Program-made: the position numbers and the translations under genes
Shown: positions 2,800 through 9,397 of the stretch, piece by piece
Layout of the letters: each line of letters begins with the position of its first letter
Position numbering within the stretch: position 1 is the first letter of the stretch
From: a bacterium
GTDB taxonomy: Bacteria; SAR324; NAC60-12
Reading direction: 5' to 3'
Length of the DNA stretch: 64,000 nucleotides
Assembly: GCA_965205865.1 (NCBI GenBank)
Contig: CBDBHR010000030.1
Span: forward strand, 192,001-256,000
Notes under the pieces: generated by a model
Told to the model about the DNA's origin: nothing
Databases searched by the model: none
The model's input: only the letters and a program-made list of their open reading frames with translations

Positions 2800-3903
2800 A
2801 TGGCCAAATCGGAAAAACCTGCAAACCCCAAACGAAAAGGGACGCCTCACAATGATTTTTTTATTCAACAGTGGAGTGATTTAAAAGTCGCTCAGGCTTT
2901 TTTTAAAGAGTATTTGCCCGCTTCCATTCAAGCAATCATGGACTGGTCTCAATTACGTCTGGCACCAGGCGATTTTGTGCAAAAAGCGTTGAAGAATCGT
3001 AAAAGTGATCTCCTTTATGAAACTCGTTTTAAAGGAAGCGAGGGCCAGGAAATCAAGGGATTCTTCTTGATTCATTTCGAGCATCAAAAGGAGCCGGATG
3101 AAACCATGTGCTATCGGTATTTGAGCTATTTGGTGGGGATTTATGAGCAATATTTGAAGCAATTTCCTCAAGAAGGGCTCCCGATTGTTTTTCCGATAAC
3201 ACTTTTTCAAGGTCCCAAAAAATGGACCGCCGCCCTCCACTTTCATGACTTTCTCAGTGTTCCCGAGGCCCTCAAACCCTATGTGCCTTCCTTTGAATAT
3301 CACCTGGTGGATTTATCAGGCATGAGTGATGATCAAATCAAAGGATCCTTGTTTTTGAGAGTGTTTTTAATGATCATGAAACACATCGACTCCCCAGAAC
3401 TTTCCCATCTTTTAGCCACTGTCATCTGGCCTTTGTTTGAAAAACTATTTGAAGAAGGCAGTGGTTTGAGGTATCTTGAGGATGTACTCTACTATTTATT
3501 CAAAGCCAGTTCCCACCTCAAAGAAGAGGAAATGGTGCAACAAGTGCAAAACCTGCTCAGCTTTGAAGACGCTCACGAGGTAATTATGACAATCGCCGAA
3601 CAATTGGAACAAAAAGGACTCCAAAAAGGACTCCAAAAAGGACTTCTGAAAGGTCGTCAAGAAGGTCATCAAAAAGGTCATCAAAAAGGTCGTCAAGAAG
3701 GTCGTCAAGAAGAAGCATATCATCTACTAAAAAAACAACTCCAAAAGAAGTTTGGTGAAGCCGCGGAACCTTATCAAGCCATTCTAGCGACTCTCTCTGT
3801 TGATGAACTCGAAACACTAGGAGAAAGACTCATCACTCAATCGACTTTAGAAGACATTTTTCAAGGGTTTCCCTGGAGTGGCTCTCCACCAAAGCTTTCT
3901 TAA
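2800..3903 (+). CDS. Rpn-family recombination-promoting nuclease / putative transposase (Transposase_31) with DUF4351-like C-terminus
   Basis: PHNDFF, KSDLLYET, FEHQ PD-(D/E)xK motifs, MTIAEQLEQKG followed by QKG/QEG repeats. SD AAGGAG upstream of the start. Confidence 0.9.
   Translation: MAKSEKPANPKRKGTPHNDFFIQQWSDLKVAQAFFKEYLPASIQAIMDWSQLRLAPGDFVQKALKNRKSDLLYETRFKGSEGQEIKGFFLIHFEHQKEPDETMCYRYLSYLVGIYEQYLKQFPQEGLPIVFPITLFQGPKKWTAALHFHDFLSVPEALKPYVPSFEYHLVDLSGMSDDQIKGSLFLRVFLMIMKHIDSPELSHLLATVIWPLFEKLFEEGSGLRYLEDVLYYLFKASSHLKEEEMVQQVQNLLSFEDAHEVIMTIAEQLEQKGLQKGLQKGLLKGRQEGHQKGHQKGRQEGRQEEAYHLLKKQLQKKFGEAAEPYQAILATLSVDELETLGERLITQSTLEDIFQGFPWSGSPPKLS
3586..3903 (+). CDS. Probable intragenic small Rpn product (RpnS-like antitoxin)
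   Basis: In-frame ATG of MTIAEQL preceded by SD-like GAGGT (CACGAGGTAATTATG), matching the known RpnL/RpnS arrangement. Confidence 0.6.
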   Translation: MTIAEQLEQKGLQKGLQKGLLKGRQEGHQKGHQKGRQEGRQEEAYHLLKKQLQKKFGEAAEPYQAILATLSVDELETLGERLITQSTLEDIFQGFPWSGSPPKLS

Positions 3904-4105: not shown

Positions 4106-4285
4106 TTCATTGAATTTATAAGAATACAGAATTAATGAATCACCGTATTAAAAAAAAGTTTGACAACCATTTGCAAAGCGAGTATACAAATTATTCCAAG
4201 GACAAAAGGGCAATAATGCGATCCTTCGCTTTGCTCAGGATGACATGAAAGTCTGAAATTAAACCGTTTCAAGGATAAAAGAATC

Positions 4286-4315
4286 TTGACAATAAGGTAG
4301 ATATGCGAGTAAACT
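4286..4315 (+). promoter_or_regulatory. Sigma70-like promoter for the SBP leader
   Basis: TTGACA-N18-TAAACT. The homologous copy at 38361-38390 (minus strand) reads TTGACA-N18-TATACT. Confidence 0.6.
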
Positions 4316-4321
4316 TAAACA

Positions 4322-4397
4322 CCCAGTTCCCAGTTCCCAGTTCCCAGTTCCCAGTTCCCAGTTCCCAGTTCCCAGTTCCCAGTTCCCAGTTCCCAGT
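4322..4397 (+). repeat. Tandem heptamer array (CCCAGTT) x10 plus one partial copy
   Basis: Read directly from the sequence. Confidence 0.97.
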
Positions 4398-4675
4398 AAT
4401 TAGTCCCAGTCACACTTCACAAATCCCAAGTTCTACCCCCTTATCTCATCTCGACGGGGCCGTCGGTACGCCCGGTCCGCATACGGCGCATCGGCGTACC
4501 GGAAGCAACGCGGTAGCGGCGCCCAGTCCGAGAGGGAGAGATCCTTAAGATCCCTCGTTCCCAGTTCCAAATCCCAAGTTCCAAGTTCCAGGAACAGAAC
4601 GGCAAGGGTGAATTTGGAAAATCATGGACGTCTGAGAGCGTCCTTGTTTCGTTCATTTTTTATAAGGAGAACCCT

Positions 4676-4813
4676 ATGTTGAAATCACGTAAGCAGAAAT
4701 TTGTCGCCTCCGTCGTGAGGCTGAACGTGGCAGGCGCCTTGTCTGCCACAAAAAACCGATTCGCTCAATGGCTGAGTGAATCATTATCTTCACCCTCAAT
4801 TAAAAGAGGTTAG
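4676..4813 (+). CDS. Putative 45-aa leader peptide, unit 1 (MLKSRKQKFVASVVRLNVAGALSATKNRF...)
   Basis: SD AAGGAG before ATG 4676, TAG at 4811. Paralogous to the next small ORF. Confidence 0.45.
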   Translation: MLKSRKQKFVASVVRLNVAGALSATKNRFAQWLSESLSSPSIKRG

Positions 4814-4814
4814 T

Positions 4815-4937
4815 ATGGGTATTGTGAAGAAACTTTTAGCCCCTGTCGTGGAGCTGTTCGTTGCAGACGTTGGGTCTGCCACGAAACTGCGATTCACCTC
4901 AGAGCAGGTGAATCTTTTTATAACACCTCAAATGTAA
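4815..4937 (+). CDS. Putative 40-aa leader peptide, unit 2 (MGIVKKLLAPVVELFVADVGSATKLRF...)
   Basis: SD GAGG before ATG 4815, TAA at 4935. Shares the A.VV.L.VA...SATK.RF pattern with unit 1. Confidence 0.45.
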   Translation: MGIVKKLLAPVVELFVADVGSATKLRFTSEQVNLFITPQM

Positions 4938-4946
4938 GAGGACACA

Positions 4947-6675
4947 ATGGAAAAAAGAATAATAAGAAAACTTCAATCCCGCCGTGACCGTGCAAGAGAT
5001 GGTCAAAGACCCGTCCACTGGCGAGATGGTGGAGGCACCTCGGTATGGTGGCAGAATTGTCCTCAGCGAGGCCGCCCAGCAAACGCATCCTGACGGCTGG
5101 TGGGGGTCATCGAACTCCCGAATAGCAAGTCTCGCTTTGGATAAGCTGGGCATAGGGAATTGGGCATTAGATAGGGACGTATTTGACTGGACATACCAGT
5201 TTACTGATATGGAGTTTATTAAACCCCACCTGGCGGAAAGCTGGGAGATTTCCCCGGACGGCCTCACCTATACCTTCAACATCCGAAAGGGCGTTCACTG
5301 GCAGAACAAGGCGCCGATGAACGGGCGGGAGCTAACTGCCTATGACGTCGAGCATCACTTCCACCGTTTCTATGGTCTGGGCAGCGGCTTCACCGAGCCG
5401 ACCCCCCACACGGCTTAGGTCCAAAGCTTTCCAGTAGTATCAATAACGGCGACCGACAAATGGACAGTTGTTTTTAAGCTTTCACAGCCAAGCTTAACTG
5501 CGCTGGAGGAAATAACCTATAAGAGCTACGCGACTAGCTGGATACAGCCCCCCGAAGTCATCAAGCAATATGGCGACATGAAGGATTGGAGGAACGTCGT
5601 CGGCACGGAACCCTATATGCTGACCGACCAGGTCAGGGACAGCTCTACCACCTACACCAAGAACCCTGACTACTTCGCTTTTGACGAGAAGTACCCGGAG
5701 AACCGCCTGCCCTATGCCGACGAGATAAAGTTTCTGGTAATACCGGATTTACAGACGCAACTGGCGGCACTGCGCACGGGAAAGATTGCTGCCTACACTC
5801 AGGGCCTTACCATCCCCCAATGGGAGAGCATGCAGCGGACGAACCCCGAAATCAGAATGAAACCCTTACTCGACCAGCCAATGACTGGTTATGCCTTGCA
5901 CTTGCGCGACCCGGAGTCACCCTTTACGGACATCAGGGTGCGCATAGCCATGCAGAAGGCAATAGACCGCGAGACAATTAACAGGACATGGGCTAAGGGC
6001 TTGGGAGACCCGACACCTTATGGGATTATGGGGCCGTCAATGATCGGGTACTTCACCCCATTTGAGGAGTGGCCCGAGGAGGTCAAGGAAATGTGGCGCT
6101 ATGACCCGGCAGAGGCCGAGAGGCTCCTTGATGAGGCTGGGTTTCCGCGCAGCGCCGACGGCATTAGATTCAAGACGGACGTTTATTTCAATGAATGGTA
6201 TGGGCGTATGGACCTGACACAAATAGTCACAACCTACTGGGCAGCGATTGGCGTTGATGTCGGGATTAAGATGTTAGACCTTACTGCTCACAGGGCTGCT
6301 CAGACTGGCCGCACTTATAAACATATAATCCTCTGCAATCGAGCTACGGGTTACACCGCGGCGATATGGTGGCAAGCCCATAGTGAAAGTCAATGGAACG
6401 CGCCGGGTCTGAACGATCCTGAGTACGACGCCATGGTTGACGTCGCCAATGCCGCTACCACCGTTGAGGAGTTCAAGAGGCTGGTAAAAGAAATTAATAT
6501 GTACCTCTTAAAGCAGAAAGTTTGTGTAGGGGTTGATCGTCTTCCTGTCTTTAACGTCTGGCAGCCGTGGCTGGCTGGCTACAATGGTGAAGTACGGCTG
6601 GGAACCGATCTTGGCCGAGCCGCTTATGCCCGGGTCTGGGTTGACCAGGAGCTGAAGAAGGAAATGGGGCACTAG
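4947..6675 (+). pseudogene. Peptide/nickel ABC transporter solute-binding protein (family 5), disrupted
   Basis: True start MEKRIIRKLQS at 4947 (compare MEKSKTRKMQS at 29546) is out of frame with the body, and the signal peptide is deleted. In-frame TAG at 5416-5418. Otherwise colinear with the paralogs at 27762 and 36050. Confidence 0.88.
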
Positions 6676-6709
6676 GGCTCAGCACTTCACCGGTTGGCTC
6701 CTGACAAAA

Positions 6710-6745: not shown

Positions 6746-6829
6746 CTGATTGAATAGTGGGAGGGGGGCGACGGGATTGCCACCCCTTTGGCTCACAATG
6801 ACGAGGGAGATCGCGATGAGGTGGGTGAC

Positions 6830-7789
6830 ATGCGAACCTACGTAATTAGAAGAATATTGCTCATCATTCCCACCGTGTTGATAGTGTCTATTATCGTCTT
6901 CCTTTCAGTACGTCTCATACCGGGCGATGTCATAGACGCGATGATGGCTTTGATGCCGCCTGAGGCTGGCATGGTGCTTGACCGTGAAGCGATTGAGCAG
7001 GCCCTGGGGTTGGATGCGCCCATCCACATCCAGTATGGACGCTGGATGGGAGACATTGTTCTGCACGGCAGCCTCGGGAAATCACTGTATGGCGGTCCGT
7101 CCGTGACTGAACAGTTGTTCAGTAAATTGCCGGTGACCCTTGAGCTTGGTATCCTGGCAATCATATTCGGGCTCGCCATAGCGTTCCCAGTCGGCATCTA
7201 CTCGGCGATCCATCAGGATACGGCCGGTGATTATGGAGGGCGTACTCTCGCCATCCTCTTTTTCTGCCTTCCCAACTTCTGGCTCGGCACTATCGTCATG
7301 ATTTACCCCTCAATCTGGTGGGCTTGGTCGCCATCCATGGAGCTGATTCCATTTGCCGACGACCCACTGGCTAACCTGGGAATGTTCACCATTCCAGCAG
7401 TCATTCTTGGCGCGTCCATGGCGGGGGTGACCATGAGAATGTCCCGCACCATGATGCTGGAGGTGTTGAGGCAGGACTACATCAGGACTGCCTATGCAAA
7501 GGGGCTCAAAGAGAGGGCAGTCATTGTCAGGCACGCCCTGAAGAACGCCTTCATCCCGGTAATTACCATAGTCGGCATGCAGTTGCCTATTCTGATTGGC
7601 GGTGCCGTTATTATGGAGCAGATATTCGTCCTGCCCGGCATAGGCCGTCTCTTTCTAGAGGCTCTCAATGACCGAGACTATGCGATGGTCTCCGGAGTAA
7701 ACCTGTTTATCGCCACCGCGGTAATAGGCATCAATCTGCTAATTGACCTCACCTATGGTTATTTAGACCCCAGGATTCAATACAAATAA
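6830..7789 (+). CDS. Peptide ABC transporter permease, DppB/OppB family
   Basis: MRTYVIRRILL start, IPGD, and EAA-loop region MLEVLRQDYIRTAYAKGL, ending LDPRI. Confidence 0.93.
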   Translation: MRTYVIRRILLIIPTVLIVSIIVFLSVRLIPGDVIDAMMALMPPEAGMVLDREAIEQALGLDAPIHIQYGRWMGDIVLHGSLGKSLYGGPSVTEQLFSKLPVTLELGILAIIFGLAIAFPVGIYSAIHQDTAGDYGGRTLAILFFCLPNFWLGTIVMIYPSIWWAWSPSMELIPFADDPLANLGMFTIPAVILGASMAGVTMRMSRTMMLEVLRQDYIRTAYAKGLKERAVIVRHALKNAFIPVITIVGMQLPILIGGAVIMEQIFVLPGIGRLFLEALNDRDYAMVSGVNLFIATAVIGINLLIDLTYGYLDPRIQYK

Positions 7790-7791
7790 AA

Positions 7792-7948
7792 GGAAAGAAA
7801 ATTAAATAAGTTAGAGTAGGGATACGCAAAATTAGGGGACACGTAACAGCAGCCGGACAACAGTATCATAAGCATGCACGGTGGTGTACATGTCCCCCAA
7901 TTTTGCTCCCATCATCAGAAAAATCACAGGTTATTTAATTTCTATTCC
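7792..7948. mobile_element. MITE family B, diverged copy between dppB and dppC
   Basis: GGAAAGAAAATTAAATAAG...GTTATTTAATTTCTATTCC with the same internal GGGGACA/TGTCCCC inverted repeat. Confidence 0.75.
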
Positions 7949-7965
7949 TAAAAGGAAAGAGCCGG

Positions 7966-8934
7966 ATGAGTGGCGTTACAGATACATCTTTGGAAATAGC
8001 GGCGCCCAAGAGACGTGGCCTGCTGGCCGATTTCCTGATCAGGCTTCTAAGAGAGAAGCCGCTCGGTACCGTCTGTGGACTTATCGTGCTGGTACTGCTT
8101 TTTGCCGGCATCTTTGCGGATCTCCTGGCTCCTTATCCCTATGCTGAAATCCACCTTGAGAGCATTCTGGAGGAGCCATCAGGCCAGTATCTTCTGGGCA
8201 CCGACCAGTTGGGGCGGGATGTCCTCAGCCGCCTGATCCATGGGGCTCGTATTTCGTTAGTTGTCGGTCTGGCGGCGACCACTGTCAATGTGGTGGTCGC
8301 TGTCTTGATCGGCATCATTTCAGGATTCTTTGGCGGTAAACTGGACCTGGCTGCGCAGCGCTTTGTCGACGCCTGGATGGCTTTTCCGGGACTGCTGCTC
8401 TTGCTGACCGTCATGTCCATCGTGGGACAGGGTATCTTCCAGATCATCGTGGTCCTGGGGATCGCCGGAGGCATCGTCGGTTCCCGAGTCGTCCGAAGCG
8501 CCGTGATTGGGGTCAAAGAGAATGACTATTTTCTGGCAGCCAAAGCCGTGGGCACCCCCACGAGCCAAATCCTGGTCCGCCATGTGCTGCCCAATATTAT
8601 GGCGCCCGTCATCATCATCTTCTCCATCAACATCGGGGGGGTGATTATCAGTGAGGCGTCGCTGAGCTTCCTCGGATTCGGTCTGCCCCCTGAGGTTCCC
8701 AGCTGGGGAGGTATGCTGAGCGGCGAAGGGCGTCGATTCATGGAGATGGCGCCACGGCTGGCGCTCTGGCCGGGGCTCTGCCTGACAATTGTCGTCTACG
8801 CTCTCAACATGTTTGGCGACGCCCTCAGGGACCTGTTCGACCCAAGACTGCGCGGCGGAGAGGGCAGTTACGGCACCGCAAAGAGGAAACGCAAACCAGG
8901 TCTCCTGGCCCGACTGATCAACCCCTTCTCTTAG
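7966..8934 (+). CDS. Peptide ABC transporter permease, DppC/OppC family
   Basis: LLGTDQLGRDVLSRL, RHVLPN, EASLSFLGFG, PSWGGML, GDALRD. Confidence 0.94.
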   Translation: MSGVTDTSLEIAAPKRRGLLADFLIRLLREKPLGTVCGLIVLVLLFAGIFADLLAPYPYAEIHLESILEEPSGQYLLGTDQLGRDVLSRLIHGARISLVVGLAATTVNVVVAVLIGIISGFFGGKLDLAAQRFVDAWMAFPGLLLLLTVMSIVGQGIFQIIVVLGIAGGIVGSRVVRSAVIGVKENDYFLAAKAVGTPTSQILVRHVLPNIMAPVIIIFSINIGGVIISEASLSFLGFGLPPEVPSWGGMLSGEGRRFMEMAPRLALWPGLCLTIVVYALNMFGDALRDLFDPRLRGGEGSYGTAKRKRKPGLLARLINPFS

Positions 8935-8989
8935 AAATCAGGGAATTGGGGTCAAGCCTGTGACTTTGGGAATTTAAGTTCATATTTCC

Positions 8990-9038
8990 GTGAGGCAGGT
9001 TGGGAGTCTTACGACTCCTTTCCCCCCTGAGAACGGCT
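8990..9038 (-). other. Group II intron 3' remnant (collapsed domain V plus domain VI)
   Basis: Minus strand GAGCCG-TTCTCAGGGGGAAAGGAGTCGTAAGACTCCCAACCTGCCTCAC: DV start and end with the stem deleted, then a DVI hairpin with GTAA loop ending in AC. Confidence 0.55.
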
Positions 9039-9133
9039 CGTCGGACGGGGATGAAGGGATTGCCATAACCCTGGGTCAGCCCGAACTTTCAGCCTCATTC
9101 ACAAGGAAAGGGGGAGAGATGAGATCAGGTAGT

Positions 9134-9397
9134 TAACCTGAGTTCGAGATAAGAATTTAATAAATTCAATATGTTATGGAATCTTCATATCTTAGAGAAA
9201 CCTTGTCATTCCTGCGAGATCCCTGCGTACGCAGGGAAGGAATCCAGAGATATGCAGCCAGACTGAAATATGGTGTGAGCAAAATTGGGGGACATGTACA
9301 GCGCTGTACATCCCAACTCTACTGTTTTATGCCTGCTGTTACATGTCCCCTAATTTTGCGTATCCATACTTCTAACTTATTTAAATTTCATTCCTAA
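9134..9397. mobile_element. Composite of MITE A left part fused to MITE B right part
   Basis: 9134-9268 matches 1533-1668. 9271-9397 matches 2467-2589. Confidence 0.8.

Follow-up and report, generated by a model that had tools for sequence, protein, structure and literature searches.

The locus described here raises the question of why two tandem, hairpin-rich units, each of them also a short open reading frame (ORF), should lie directly in front of the start of a gene for a substrate-binding protein (SBP) of an ABC transporter. It lies in a 64,000-nt stretch, here called the window (positions 192,001 to 256,000, forward strand, of contig CBDBHR010000030.1, assembly GCA_965205865.1), from a bacterium of SAR324 lineage NAC60-12, and positions below are those of the window unless a contig (C) or locus (L) handle is given. 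A first-pass annotation had proposed that the two units are a tandem riboswitch or a ribosome-relay attenuator. Comparison of copies indicates that they are cassettes restricted to one genus, which front about half of the genes of an expanded family of periplasmic family-5 SBPs. The reading that we favour, with a probability of roughly 45%, is that the units are translated, structured start cassettes of about 130 nt that act by masking of the Shine-Dalgarno sequence (SD) and by translational coupling, with a T-tail subtype that resembles a leader-ORF attenuator. The relay or attenuator half of the earlier proposal is thus retained as the best mechanistic guess, while the riboswitch half is given up.

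The hairpins, the short ORFs and the CCTC-N8-GAGG stems are all where the first-pass annotation had placed them (Table 1), and the two units can be aligned to each other. Each does have three paired hairpins, H1 to H3 (primed for unit 2), but the annotation had left unmentioned a C-A mismatch in H1' and a T-C mismatch in H2', and the loop motif GTCGT to which it drew attention is not conserved in the family, being found by eye in 4 of 21 H1 loops and 6 of 21 H2 loops of an alignment of 21 full units (A2). The 291-nt stretch that holds both units has a minimum free energy of -99.5 kcal/mol as against -75.1 +/- 5.0 for shuffled sequences (n=200; z -4.92), none of the 200 shuffles being as low, and a terminator scan lists both H3 and H3' together with a further hairpin upstream of unit 1. 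The stop codon of unit 1 is 1 nt before the ATG of unit 2, and that of unit 2 is within the anti-SD loop, 9 nt before the ATG at 4947. Unit 1 is itself a mosaic, as its first 40 nt or so (the MLKSRKQK start) come from a different leader family, and its positions 1-41 have 15 separate matches of 38-40 nt elsewhere in the genome. The annotation had not recognised the units as a known riboswitch, and this was borne out, with no Rfam match at E <= 10 in 4200-5200. Over the whole window the sole Rfam hit at gathering score is a group II intron away from the units (domains D1-D4, RF02005, 33020-33242 on the minus strand, 154 bits).

The units are not a private leader of the window gene: they are members of a large repeat family tied to one gene family. 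Two genomes bear on this, the window's own (G000; 4.74 Mb in 30 contigs) and that of the one sister species in the genus (G001; a single contig of 4.26 Mb). Searching the own genome at the DNA level gave 48 matches, and iterated nhmmer gave 99, 106 and then 108 unit hits, which form 65 arrays, 29 with one unit, 29 with two and 7 with three. The N-termini of the family-5 SBP subfamily, located by tblastn with the mature part of one paralogue, number 124 in this genome, and at 54 of them an array ends no more than 400 nt upstream on the same strand. These are 54 of the 65 arrays. The remaining 11 comprise weak profile (HMM) hits where other SBPs have their ordinary signal peptides, a deletion copy of the window locus, arrays whose SBP is more than 400 nt away, and a residue of two or three orphans; no array was seen inside other genes when the array positions in this genome were inspected. 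The first-pass annotation had named genome-wide, position-independent repeats as an outcome that would speak against its proposal, and genome-wide they are, with 108 hits, but position-independent they are not, as 54 of 65 arrays are directly 5' of an SBP gene on its own strand. In the other species an SBP gene follows 26 of the 30 arrays fetched.

The other 70 of the 124 SBP genes have other repeated leader types, two of which we note here. One is a second family of tandem leader units with their own SD and ATG and an AAGAGG/CCTCTT pair, encoding peptides MMDAVKNKRSNGMGRKSLFNSIVFGKEII... and MEMTKNKRSQGRGTK... (for example at C30:308559-308625, C15:1745-2172 and in the C30:864457 region); the other encodes a peptide MVHCPILEPMNRFF... 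and has a hairpin with a T-run. Both front other SBP paralogues. With regard to the gene family itself, 124 paralogues in a 4.74-Mb marine genome is an extreme expansion of one ABC-transporter family, "marine" resting here on the labels of sequencing runs that hold a small share of the stretch. It includes about 7 near-identical operons in a row at C30:855-902 kb, and the other species has at least 40 copies of the permease genes at about 80% nucleotide identity to those of the window.

The anatomy of the arrays is best seen at their ends. The last unit typically stops at model position ~87-93, just past H2, where the hydrophobic core of the signal peptide begins, and the peptide across this junction reads ...SAAK-LQSLLLTLTLMVAAFWVSPAAA-EKKMVKDPTTG... 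Because last units run straight into the signal-peptide core, we take the SD, ATG, H1 and H2, that is the first 90 nt or so, to be the 5' end of the SBP gene itself. The weakest HMM hits are canonical signal peptides of other SBPs (MSNIFKKMMTLLVVLLVAGVVSAAE...), and so show the ancestry of this start module. The module consists of the SD, the ATG and about 25 codons that hold H1 and H2, and is homologous to the signal-peptide-coding 5' end of related SBP genes. H3 and the CCTC...GAGG stem make up a linker of about 45 nt that is seen only between successive starts. Read in this way, an array has the form (start + linker) x n, final start, true signal-peptide core, mature SBP. There is no T-rich tail in 31 of the 43 distinct full units, and 30 of those 31 precede another unit-like start. 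A T-tail (at least 6 T in the 9 nt after H3) is present in 11 of the 43, unit 2 of the window included, and 9 of these precede a canonical signal-peptide start of the MEK/MK type, the next start of the other two not being classed. The H3 arm of one unit was not found.

It is at this point that a tandem riboswitch sensing a metabolite becomes hardly credible. The tandem arrangement of structured leader units that match no known family is what suggested it, but the structure amounts to three simple, separate hairpins, whose loops vary and which have neither a conserved junction nor a pocket, a coding frame constrains the units, there are 108 copies in the one genome, and the first 90 nt or so are the SBP's own 5' coding end.

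That each unit is an SD-led ORF was correctly noted, and the frames are kept open across the family. In the window's own genome 41 of 55 distinct full units could be evaluated, having a recognisable ATG and a next start, and 27 of the 41 stay open as far as the next ATG and in phase with it. The rest comprise 4 that stop no more than 25 nt before that ATG, both window units among them, 3 that overlap it in another frame and 7 with an early stop; of the control frames, two per unit, 19 of 82 are open. The figures for the other species are 20 of 26 evaluable units open and in frame, 1 that stops near the next ATG, 1 that overlaps it and 4 that stop early, with control frames open in 12 of 52 cases. 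The stretch past the H3 loop is read in different frames among copies (...RVNRSQHPQLKEV as against ...CGESFYFTSIVRG), yet the overall frame to the next ATG is restored, which argues that what is kept is an open path for the ribosome and not a particular peptide.

The RNA structure is conserved as well. The four-helix structure was set by hand, as RNAalifold on the nhmmer alignment gave only parts of the helices, and we scored it on A2 and on a larger alignment (A3) of 40 distinct rows from the two species, aligned to the profile model R1. In A2, 95.2% of cells are paired and 7 of 27 pairs have changed on both sides, while partners slid by 1-3 columns pair in 37-45% of cells. In A3, 95.6% are paired, there are 29 double-change cells as against 9.9 in shuffles, and the covariation score was reached by none of 500 shuffles. 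The compensatory changes claimed for the stems are thus present in both alignments. The strongest covarying pair is in H1 (CG 20, UA 8, GU 7, UG 2), and its changes convert Ser/Pro and Arg/Gly codons in concert, as one would expect of a helix but not of a protein. Pairing is also better on the sense strand than on the antisense strand (95.6% versus 86.5%), with 124 G-U cells versus 28 A-C cells. For 27 intact genes whose ORF begins in a unit, fourfold third-position diversity is 0.17 in the leader (15 columns) versus 0.42 in the gene body (134 columns), and in the stems the codons GCA, GGC and TCT are the same in 27 of 27 genes, while loop codons vary freely. As the stems are conserved and the loops variable, selection would be on pairing, and within the limits of such comparisons we regard it as shown that selection acts on the hairpins as RNA of the sense strand.

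The same data bear on the proposal that the units have their function as protein, where the N-terminal extension of the SBP precursor might, for instance, slow export, recruit a chaperone or provide a membrane anchor. The correlated Ser/Pro and Arg/Gly changes that track H1 base pairing and the invariant synonymous sites in the stems are not what it predicts, nor is a linker that is read in different frames among copies. The start-module peptide MxxxKKLVASxVGLNPAGxWSAAK is, it is true, fairly conserved, the frames are open and in phase, and public gene callers predict precursors of 640-705 aa that include the extension. However neither Pfam nor NCBIfam has a match in the unit peptides, and these are weakly hydrophobic (best 12-residue hydropathy 1.46, versus 2.59 for the true signal-peptide core). 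We consider a role as protein improbable.

With regard to initiation, partition-function folds of 35 multi-unit arrays give the SD tetramers a mean unpaired probability of 0.20 (n=77) versus 0.41 overall and 0.48 for ATGs. The first-pass annotation had suggested that the CCUC:GAGG stem could sequester the next SD, and the prediction agrees, with a mean pair probability of 0.62 over 34 sites and values above 0.5 at 65% of them. The SDs are therefore predicted to be mostly masked. A structured 5' segment with invariant stem sequences that is shared by more than 50 SBP mRNAs might alternatively be a common docking site, through which a trans-acting small RNA or an RNA-binding protein co-regulates the whole SBP family. 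There is a parallel in the AbcR-type small RNAs that control ABC-transporter mRNAs in alpha-rhizobia (PMC8844928). The variable loops leave no conserved single-stranded target for such a regulator, however, no antisense or stand-alone regulator-like copy is present among the 108 hits (two or three orphan units being left aside), and 70 of the 124 SBP genes have other leaders, so that this explanation too has little probability in our view.

Model R1 gives 76 matches in the window's own genome and 50 in the other species, and none in 39 further genomes, 23 from the family and 16 from the order. A pattern scan of 185,579 species genomes gave 0 hits, in a collection that may omit the window's own and near genomes, and no unit is present at L051 or L052, the nearest two SBP loci that belong to other phyla. 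Twelve loci from a pattern scan of JGI metagenomes were taken as chance matches, none being better than E 0.016 with R1. A protein search gave 34 public SBP_bac_5 proteins with the extension, 278-705 aa in length, and as these come from contigs of several different assemblies the units are not an artefact of one assembly. No description of the element was found in a literature search made without the organism name.

Comparison of the two species shows how fast the leaders change. Loci of the other species were compared with orthologues in the window's genome that are 93-98% identical in the mature SBP part. At L050 the leader is the same as at C30:902434, but at L038 and L046 there are unit arrays, whereas the leaders of their counterparts C30:1042090 and C30:1027883 are quite different, and there the identity begins sharply at CAATC(A/C), just before the hydrophobic core. 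L044 differs from C30:928035 by one extra full unit and a 45-nt insert with a GAAA-loop hairpin and its own GGAG...ATG. The cassettes thus turn over much faster than the genes they front. At the window locus only the downstream part (7138-9201 of the query) is matched in the other species, at 87%, the leader and SBP having no clear orthologue.

Three further observations concern rearrangement at such loci. The insert of about 45 nt is made up of AAACTTGTCC in two direct copies and a CCCCGC-GAAA-GCGGGG hairpin, and ends in GGAG..ATG; it is at L044:~1700-1745 and also at C25:27131, C26:250438 and C29:560765. Some orthologues have it and others lack it, immediately in front of the signal-peptide core, where it creates a new SD and start. 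At L042 (region of position 1340147 in the other species) a full unit is followed by an element of about 1.5 kb in place of the SBP gene; this element is present in at least 6 places in the window's genome at 95-96% identity, and is probably an insertion sequence that landed in the SBP locus. Finally, C23:160802-161106 is a 96-99% copy of window 4550-4852 whose second unit passes, through a short GTCGTGG common to both, into the interior of a permease gene, and looks like a microhomology deletion copy of the window locus.

The turnover brings in the main rival explanation, that the units are a selfish or neutral repeat. There are two precedents in the literature: mycobacterial interspersed repetitive units (MIRUs) are described as short repeats that insert at start codons and carry a translationally coupled small ORF (PMC12548453), and Rickettsia palindromic elements (RPEs) as palindromic repeats that insert in frame within ORFs (PMC10969869). 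A repeat of this kind would spread by tandem duplication and by recombination among the more than 100 SBP paralogues, always at start codons, and would persist because its own SD, ATG and open frame leave the host gene undisturbed, the hairpins serving its copying (slippage or recognition of single-stranded DNA) and not gene control. High copy number within a single genus fits this, as do the differences in unit number and type between close orthologues, the mosaic units such as unit 1 of the window with its start from another leader family, the deletion copy fused to a permease gene at C23:160802, and a 5' region (4286-4946) made entirely of repeats. The genome also has 15 Y1_Tnp matches (IS200/IS605 or RAYT-type), among which five ORFs of about 335 aa lie within 25 kb at C29:722638-745882, but no array is beside a Y1 transposase gene as judged by coordinates. 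The arrays are moreover placed and oriented too specifically for an element that transposes, with 54 of 65 arrays at SBP starts and none seen inside other genes. The 124 G-U versus 28 A-C cells and the compensatory changes point to RNA structure of the transcribed strand, although a structure in single-stranded DNA of the top strand may also be involved, and SDs, ATGs and open frames that are conserved at 75-80% unit identity imply selection on translation. We regard a selfish or neutral repeat as possible, though on the unlikely side.

The units are a new, genus-restricted family of structured, translated start-codon repeats, and MIRUs and RPEs are nearest to them in kind. Like MIRUs they are short tandem units at start codons, co-oriented with the gene, with a coupled small ORF and a copy number that varies between relatives (PMC12548453 for MIRUs). 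They differ in being longer (~130 nt), with three conserved hairpins and an anti-SD stem, in being confined to one gene family, and in the descent of their first two thirds from the part of the gene itself that encodes the signal peptide. They also mostly run in frame into the gene without a stop, where MIRUs have a 4-nt overlap, a distinction drawn from the type of junction and not from sequence comparison. The likeness to RPEs (PMC10969869) is in palindrome-rich repeats of ~100-150 bp that are in frame in ORFs and add a peptide to the product. RPEs, however, are in many unrelated genes at internal sites, whereas the units here are only at the 5' ends of secreted SBP genes, in tandem, and each with its own SD and ATG. 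Repetitive extragenic palindromes (REP) with their associated RAYT transposases were considered and set aside. Y1 genes are present in the genome, but REP are extragenic palindromes of 20-40 nt clustered with a Y1 transposase gene, whereas the units are ~130 nt long, at gene 5' ends, and by coordinates not adjacent to Y1 genes.

The reading that we favour, that of start cassettes which mask SDs and couple translation, would work as follows. Ribosomes that enter at an upstream start would melt H1 to H3 and the anti-SD stem, and would then either continue in frame or, as at both window units, stop beside the next ATG and restart, so that a serial translational coupling, or relay, sets SBP output. 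The N-terminal extension would be discarded with the signal peptide, and we suggest that in-frame units are tolerated only at secreted SBP genes because the extension would be removed in this way. In the extended signal peptide region (ESPR) of autotransporters there is likewise a conserved extension of about 24 aa N-terminal to a normal signal peptide; the extension here differs in having no Pfam match, in being conserved at the RNA level and in being tandemly repeated.

In the T-tail subtype H3 and the U-tract would form an intrinsic terminator inside the leader ORF, with read-through of transcription into the gene dependent on translation of the leader. In attenuators of the pyrBI type the leader ORF spans the terminator. 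The likeness is that in unit 2 of the window and 10 other units an SD-led ORF of 40-45 codons runs across a hairpin and U-tract just upstream of the gene start. The differences are that the units are multi-copy and modular, that no antiterminator alternative or regulatory codon run is seen, and that termination is only predicted. In more general terms, a short SD-led leader ORF is present, as in leader-peptide attenuators, and by sequence the hairpin and U-tract between leader start and gene are present in 11 of the 43 distinct full units and lacking in 31. Hairpins that sequester an SD and are opened by upstream translation are a general mechanism that is reviewed in PMC12548453. In the present units the CCUC arm pairs with the next SD inside the upstream ORF, and the window stops are beside the next ATG or in the anti-SD loop; the differences are a stem of 4 bp and, in most family members, the lack of a stop, the frame running on.

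An extension of this reading, which we think rather doubtful, is a genus-wide "plug-in" tuning of expression, in which exchangeable tandem in-frame cassettes stand before more than 50 SBP genes per genome, their peptide is discarded, their number and type set translation and read-through, and recombination reshuffles them among paralogues. Every cassette would bring a masked SD, an ATG and hairpins in the RNA, with a terminator within the ORF in some of them. Recombination at the conserved junction before the signal-peptide core would then give fast regulatory evolution of the 124-member family.

There remain several difficulties with start cassettes that regulate. Paralogues are not independent, so that all of the counts overstate the support. 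The A3 alignment was fitted to the model, and in it the number of pairs changed on both sides was reached by 36 of 500 shuffles and the number of further pair types by 24 of 500, so that covariation is moderate and not overwhelming. The low diversity of the leader could be due in part to recent spread by recombination and not to purifying selection, and a selfish or neutral repeat would account just as well for the rapid gain and loss seen between orthologues. The anti-SD stem has just 4 bp, and the prediction gives the SD at the head of an array no greater openness than those that follow (0.22 versus 0.18 unpaired), which makes the point of ribosome entry uncertain. As most units are in frame and have no stop, classical termination-reinitiation coupling is inapplicable to them. 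No antiterminator alternative or regulatory codons are apparent in the folds and peptides, where no systematic search was made. Contigs of three marine metatranscriptome runs cover parts of 5208-6700 at 92-99% likeness and most likely come from paralogues or relatives; upstream of 5208 RNA depth is only 1.96 in bin 4284-4367 (run X15) and 3.35 in bin 4956-5039 (run X16). These contigs thus cover the SBP body of relatives and leave the leader units uncovered, and are uninformative on leader expression.

Table 1. Features of the leader region, the SBP locus and the permease genes, in window coordinates
Feature	Position	Strand	Basis and remarks
Unit 1	4664..4813	+	Profile search (HMM positions 2-136); model R1, 136.9 bits
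Unit 1 SD, AAGGAG	4664-4669	+	Sequence
Unit 1 ORF, 45 aa	4676-4813 (ATG 4676, TAG 4811-4813)	+	ORF translation
Unit 1 H1, GCCTC/GAGGC	4706-4710 with 4717-4721	+	Sequence
Unit 1 H2, GTGGCAGGC/GTCTGCCAC	4727-4735 with 4741-4749	+	Sequence
Unit 1 H3, GATTCGCTCA/TGAGTGAATC	4758-4767 with 4773-4782	+	Sequence
Unit 1 anti-SD stem, CCTC-N8-GAGG	CCTC 4794-4797, SD GAGG 4806-4809	+	Sequence
Unit 2, T-tail subtype	4803..4941	+	Profile search (HMM positions 1-136)
Unit 2 ORF, 40 aa	SD GAGG 4806-4809, ATG 4815, TAA 4935-4937	+	ORF translation
Unit 2 H1'	4838-4843 with 4850-4855	+	Sequence; one C-A mismatch
Unit 2 H2'	4859-4868 with 4874-4883	+	Sequence; one T-C mismatch
Unit 2 H3', then TTTTTAT	4891-4899 with 4906-4914	+	Sequence, terminator scan; terminator-like
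Unit 2 anti-SD stem, CCTC-N8-GAGG, then ATG	CCTC 4926-4929, GAGG 4938-4941, ATG 4947	+	Sequence
Promoter-like site, TTGACA-18-TAAACT	4286..4315	+	Consensus match only; 2 found in region versus 1.8 expected in shuffles
Heptamer tract, (CCCAGTT) x 10.9	4322..4397	+	Perfect repeats, just downstream of promoter-like site
Upstream leader modules, genome-wide repeats	4398..4662	+	57 high-scoring segment pairs (HSPs) for 4398-4556; 45 hits for 4578-4662
Second, short heptamer tract	4557-4590	+	Repeat scan
Hairpin, then T-run	4626-4643	+	Terminator scan; closes module of ~85 nt
Canonical-type SBP start, MEKRIIRKLQS (signal-peptide n-region)	4947..4979	+	Comparison with paralogues
Family-5 SBP pseudogene	4993..6675	+	One frame, TAG at 5416-5418, no signal-peptide core
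Two ABC permease genes, same operon	6788-7789 and 7966-8934 (within 6788..8934)	+	BPD_transp_1, OppC_N

The SBP gene of the window itself is dead, a pseudogene, so that in this case the cassettes front a gene without function. Paralogues read MEKSKTRKIQS-LLLTL....AAA-EKKMVKDP, and in the window about 50 nt encoding the hydrophobic core are missing and the MEKRIIRKLQS start is out of frame with the mature part. A single tblastn HSP (4993-6672) with 49% identity to a paralogue runs through the internal stop, and Pfam PF00496 (SBP_bac_5) is found in both ORF pieces (1.7e-14 and 7.5e-40), all of the NCBIfam hits being below their curated cut-offs. Contigs of a DNA run (X1) match the SBP region with 0 differences, but X1 may be the source sample and so is not independent. 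Both of the permease genes downstream look intact from their sequence.

Upstream of the units, the whole of the 5' region is built of repeats. The upstream modules are repeated tens of times in the genome and include a repeated segment with a GC-rich hairpin insert. Heptamer tracts of varying copy number recur upstream of dozens of other transporter leaders in this genome, and could be phase-variable spacers or part of the 5' untranslated region. Just upstream of the leader region is a putative YhgA-like transposase gene (Transposase_31 and DUF4351; 2800-3903, plus strand), of which the other species has copies at 84-89% nucleotide identity.

For annotation there is a practical consequence, as gene callers give dozens of SBPs in these genomes 40-110 extra N-terminal residues, which is probably wrong for the mature protein. 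For the biology of the family much depends on which explanation holds. If the repeat is selfish, it adds to the mycobacterial case a clear second one of repeats that settle at start codons and bring their own coupled ORF, and one in which the RNA structure of the repeats is also under selection. The added RNA structure and SD masking may give the repeat family a regulatory role. Should the cassettes indeed govern expression, they would provide a novel and highly compact means of adjusting how much product many transporter genes yield, in which self-contained initiation modules are stacked, the peptide by-product is removed by signal peptidase, and regulatory parts are swapped between paralogues like cassettes.

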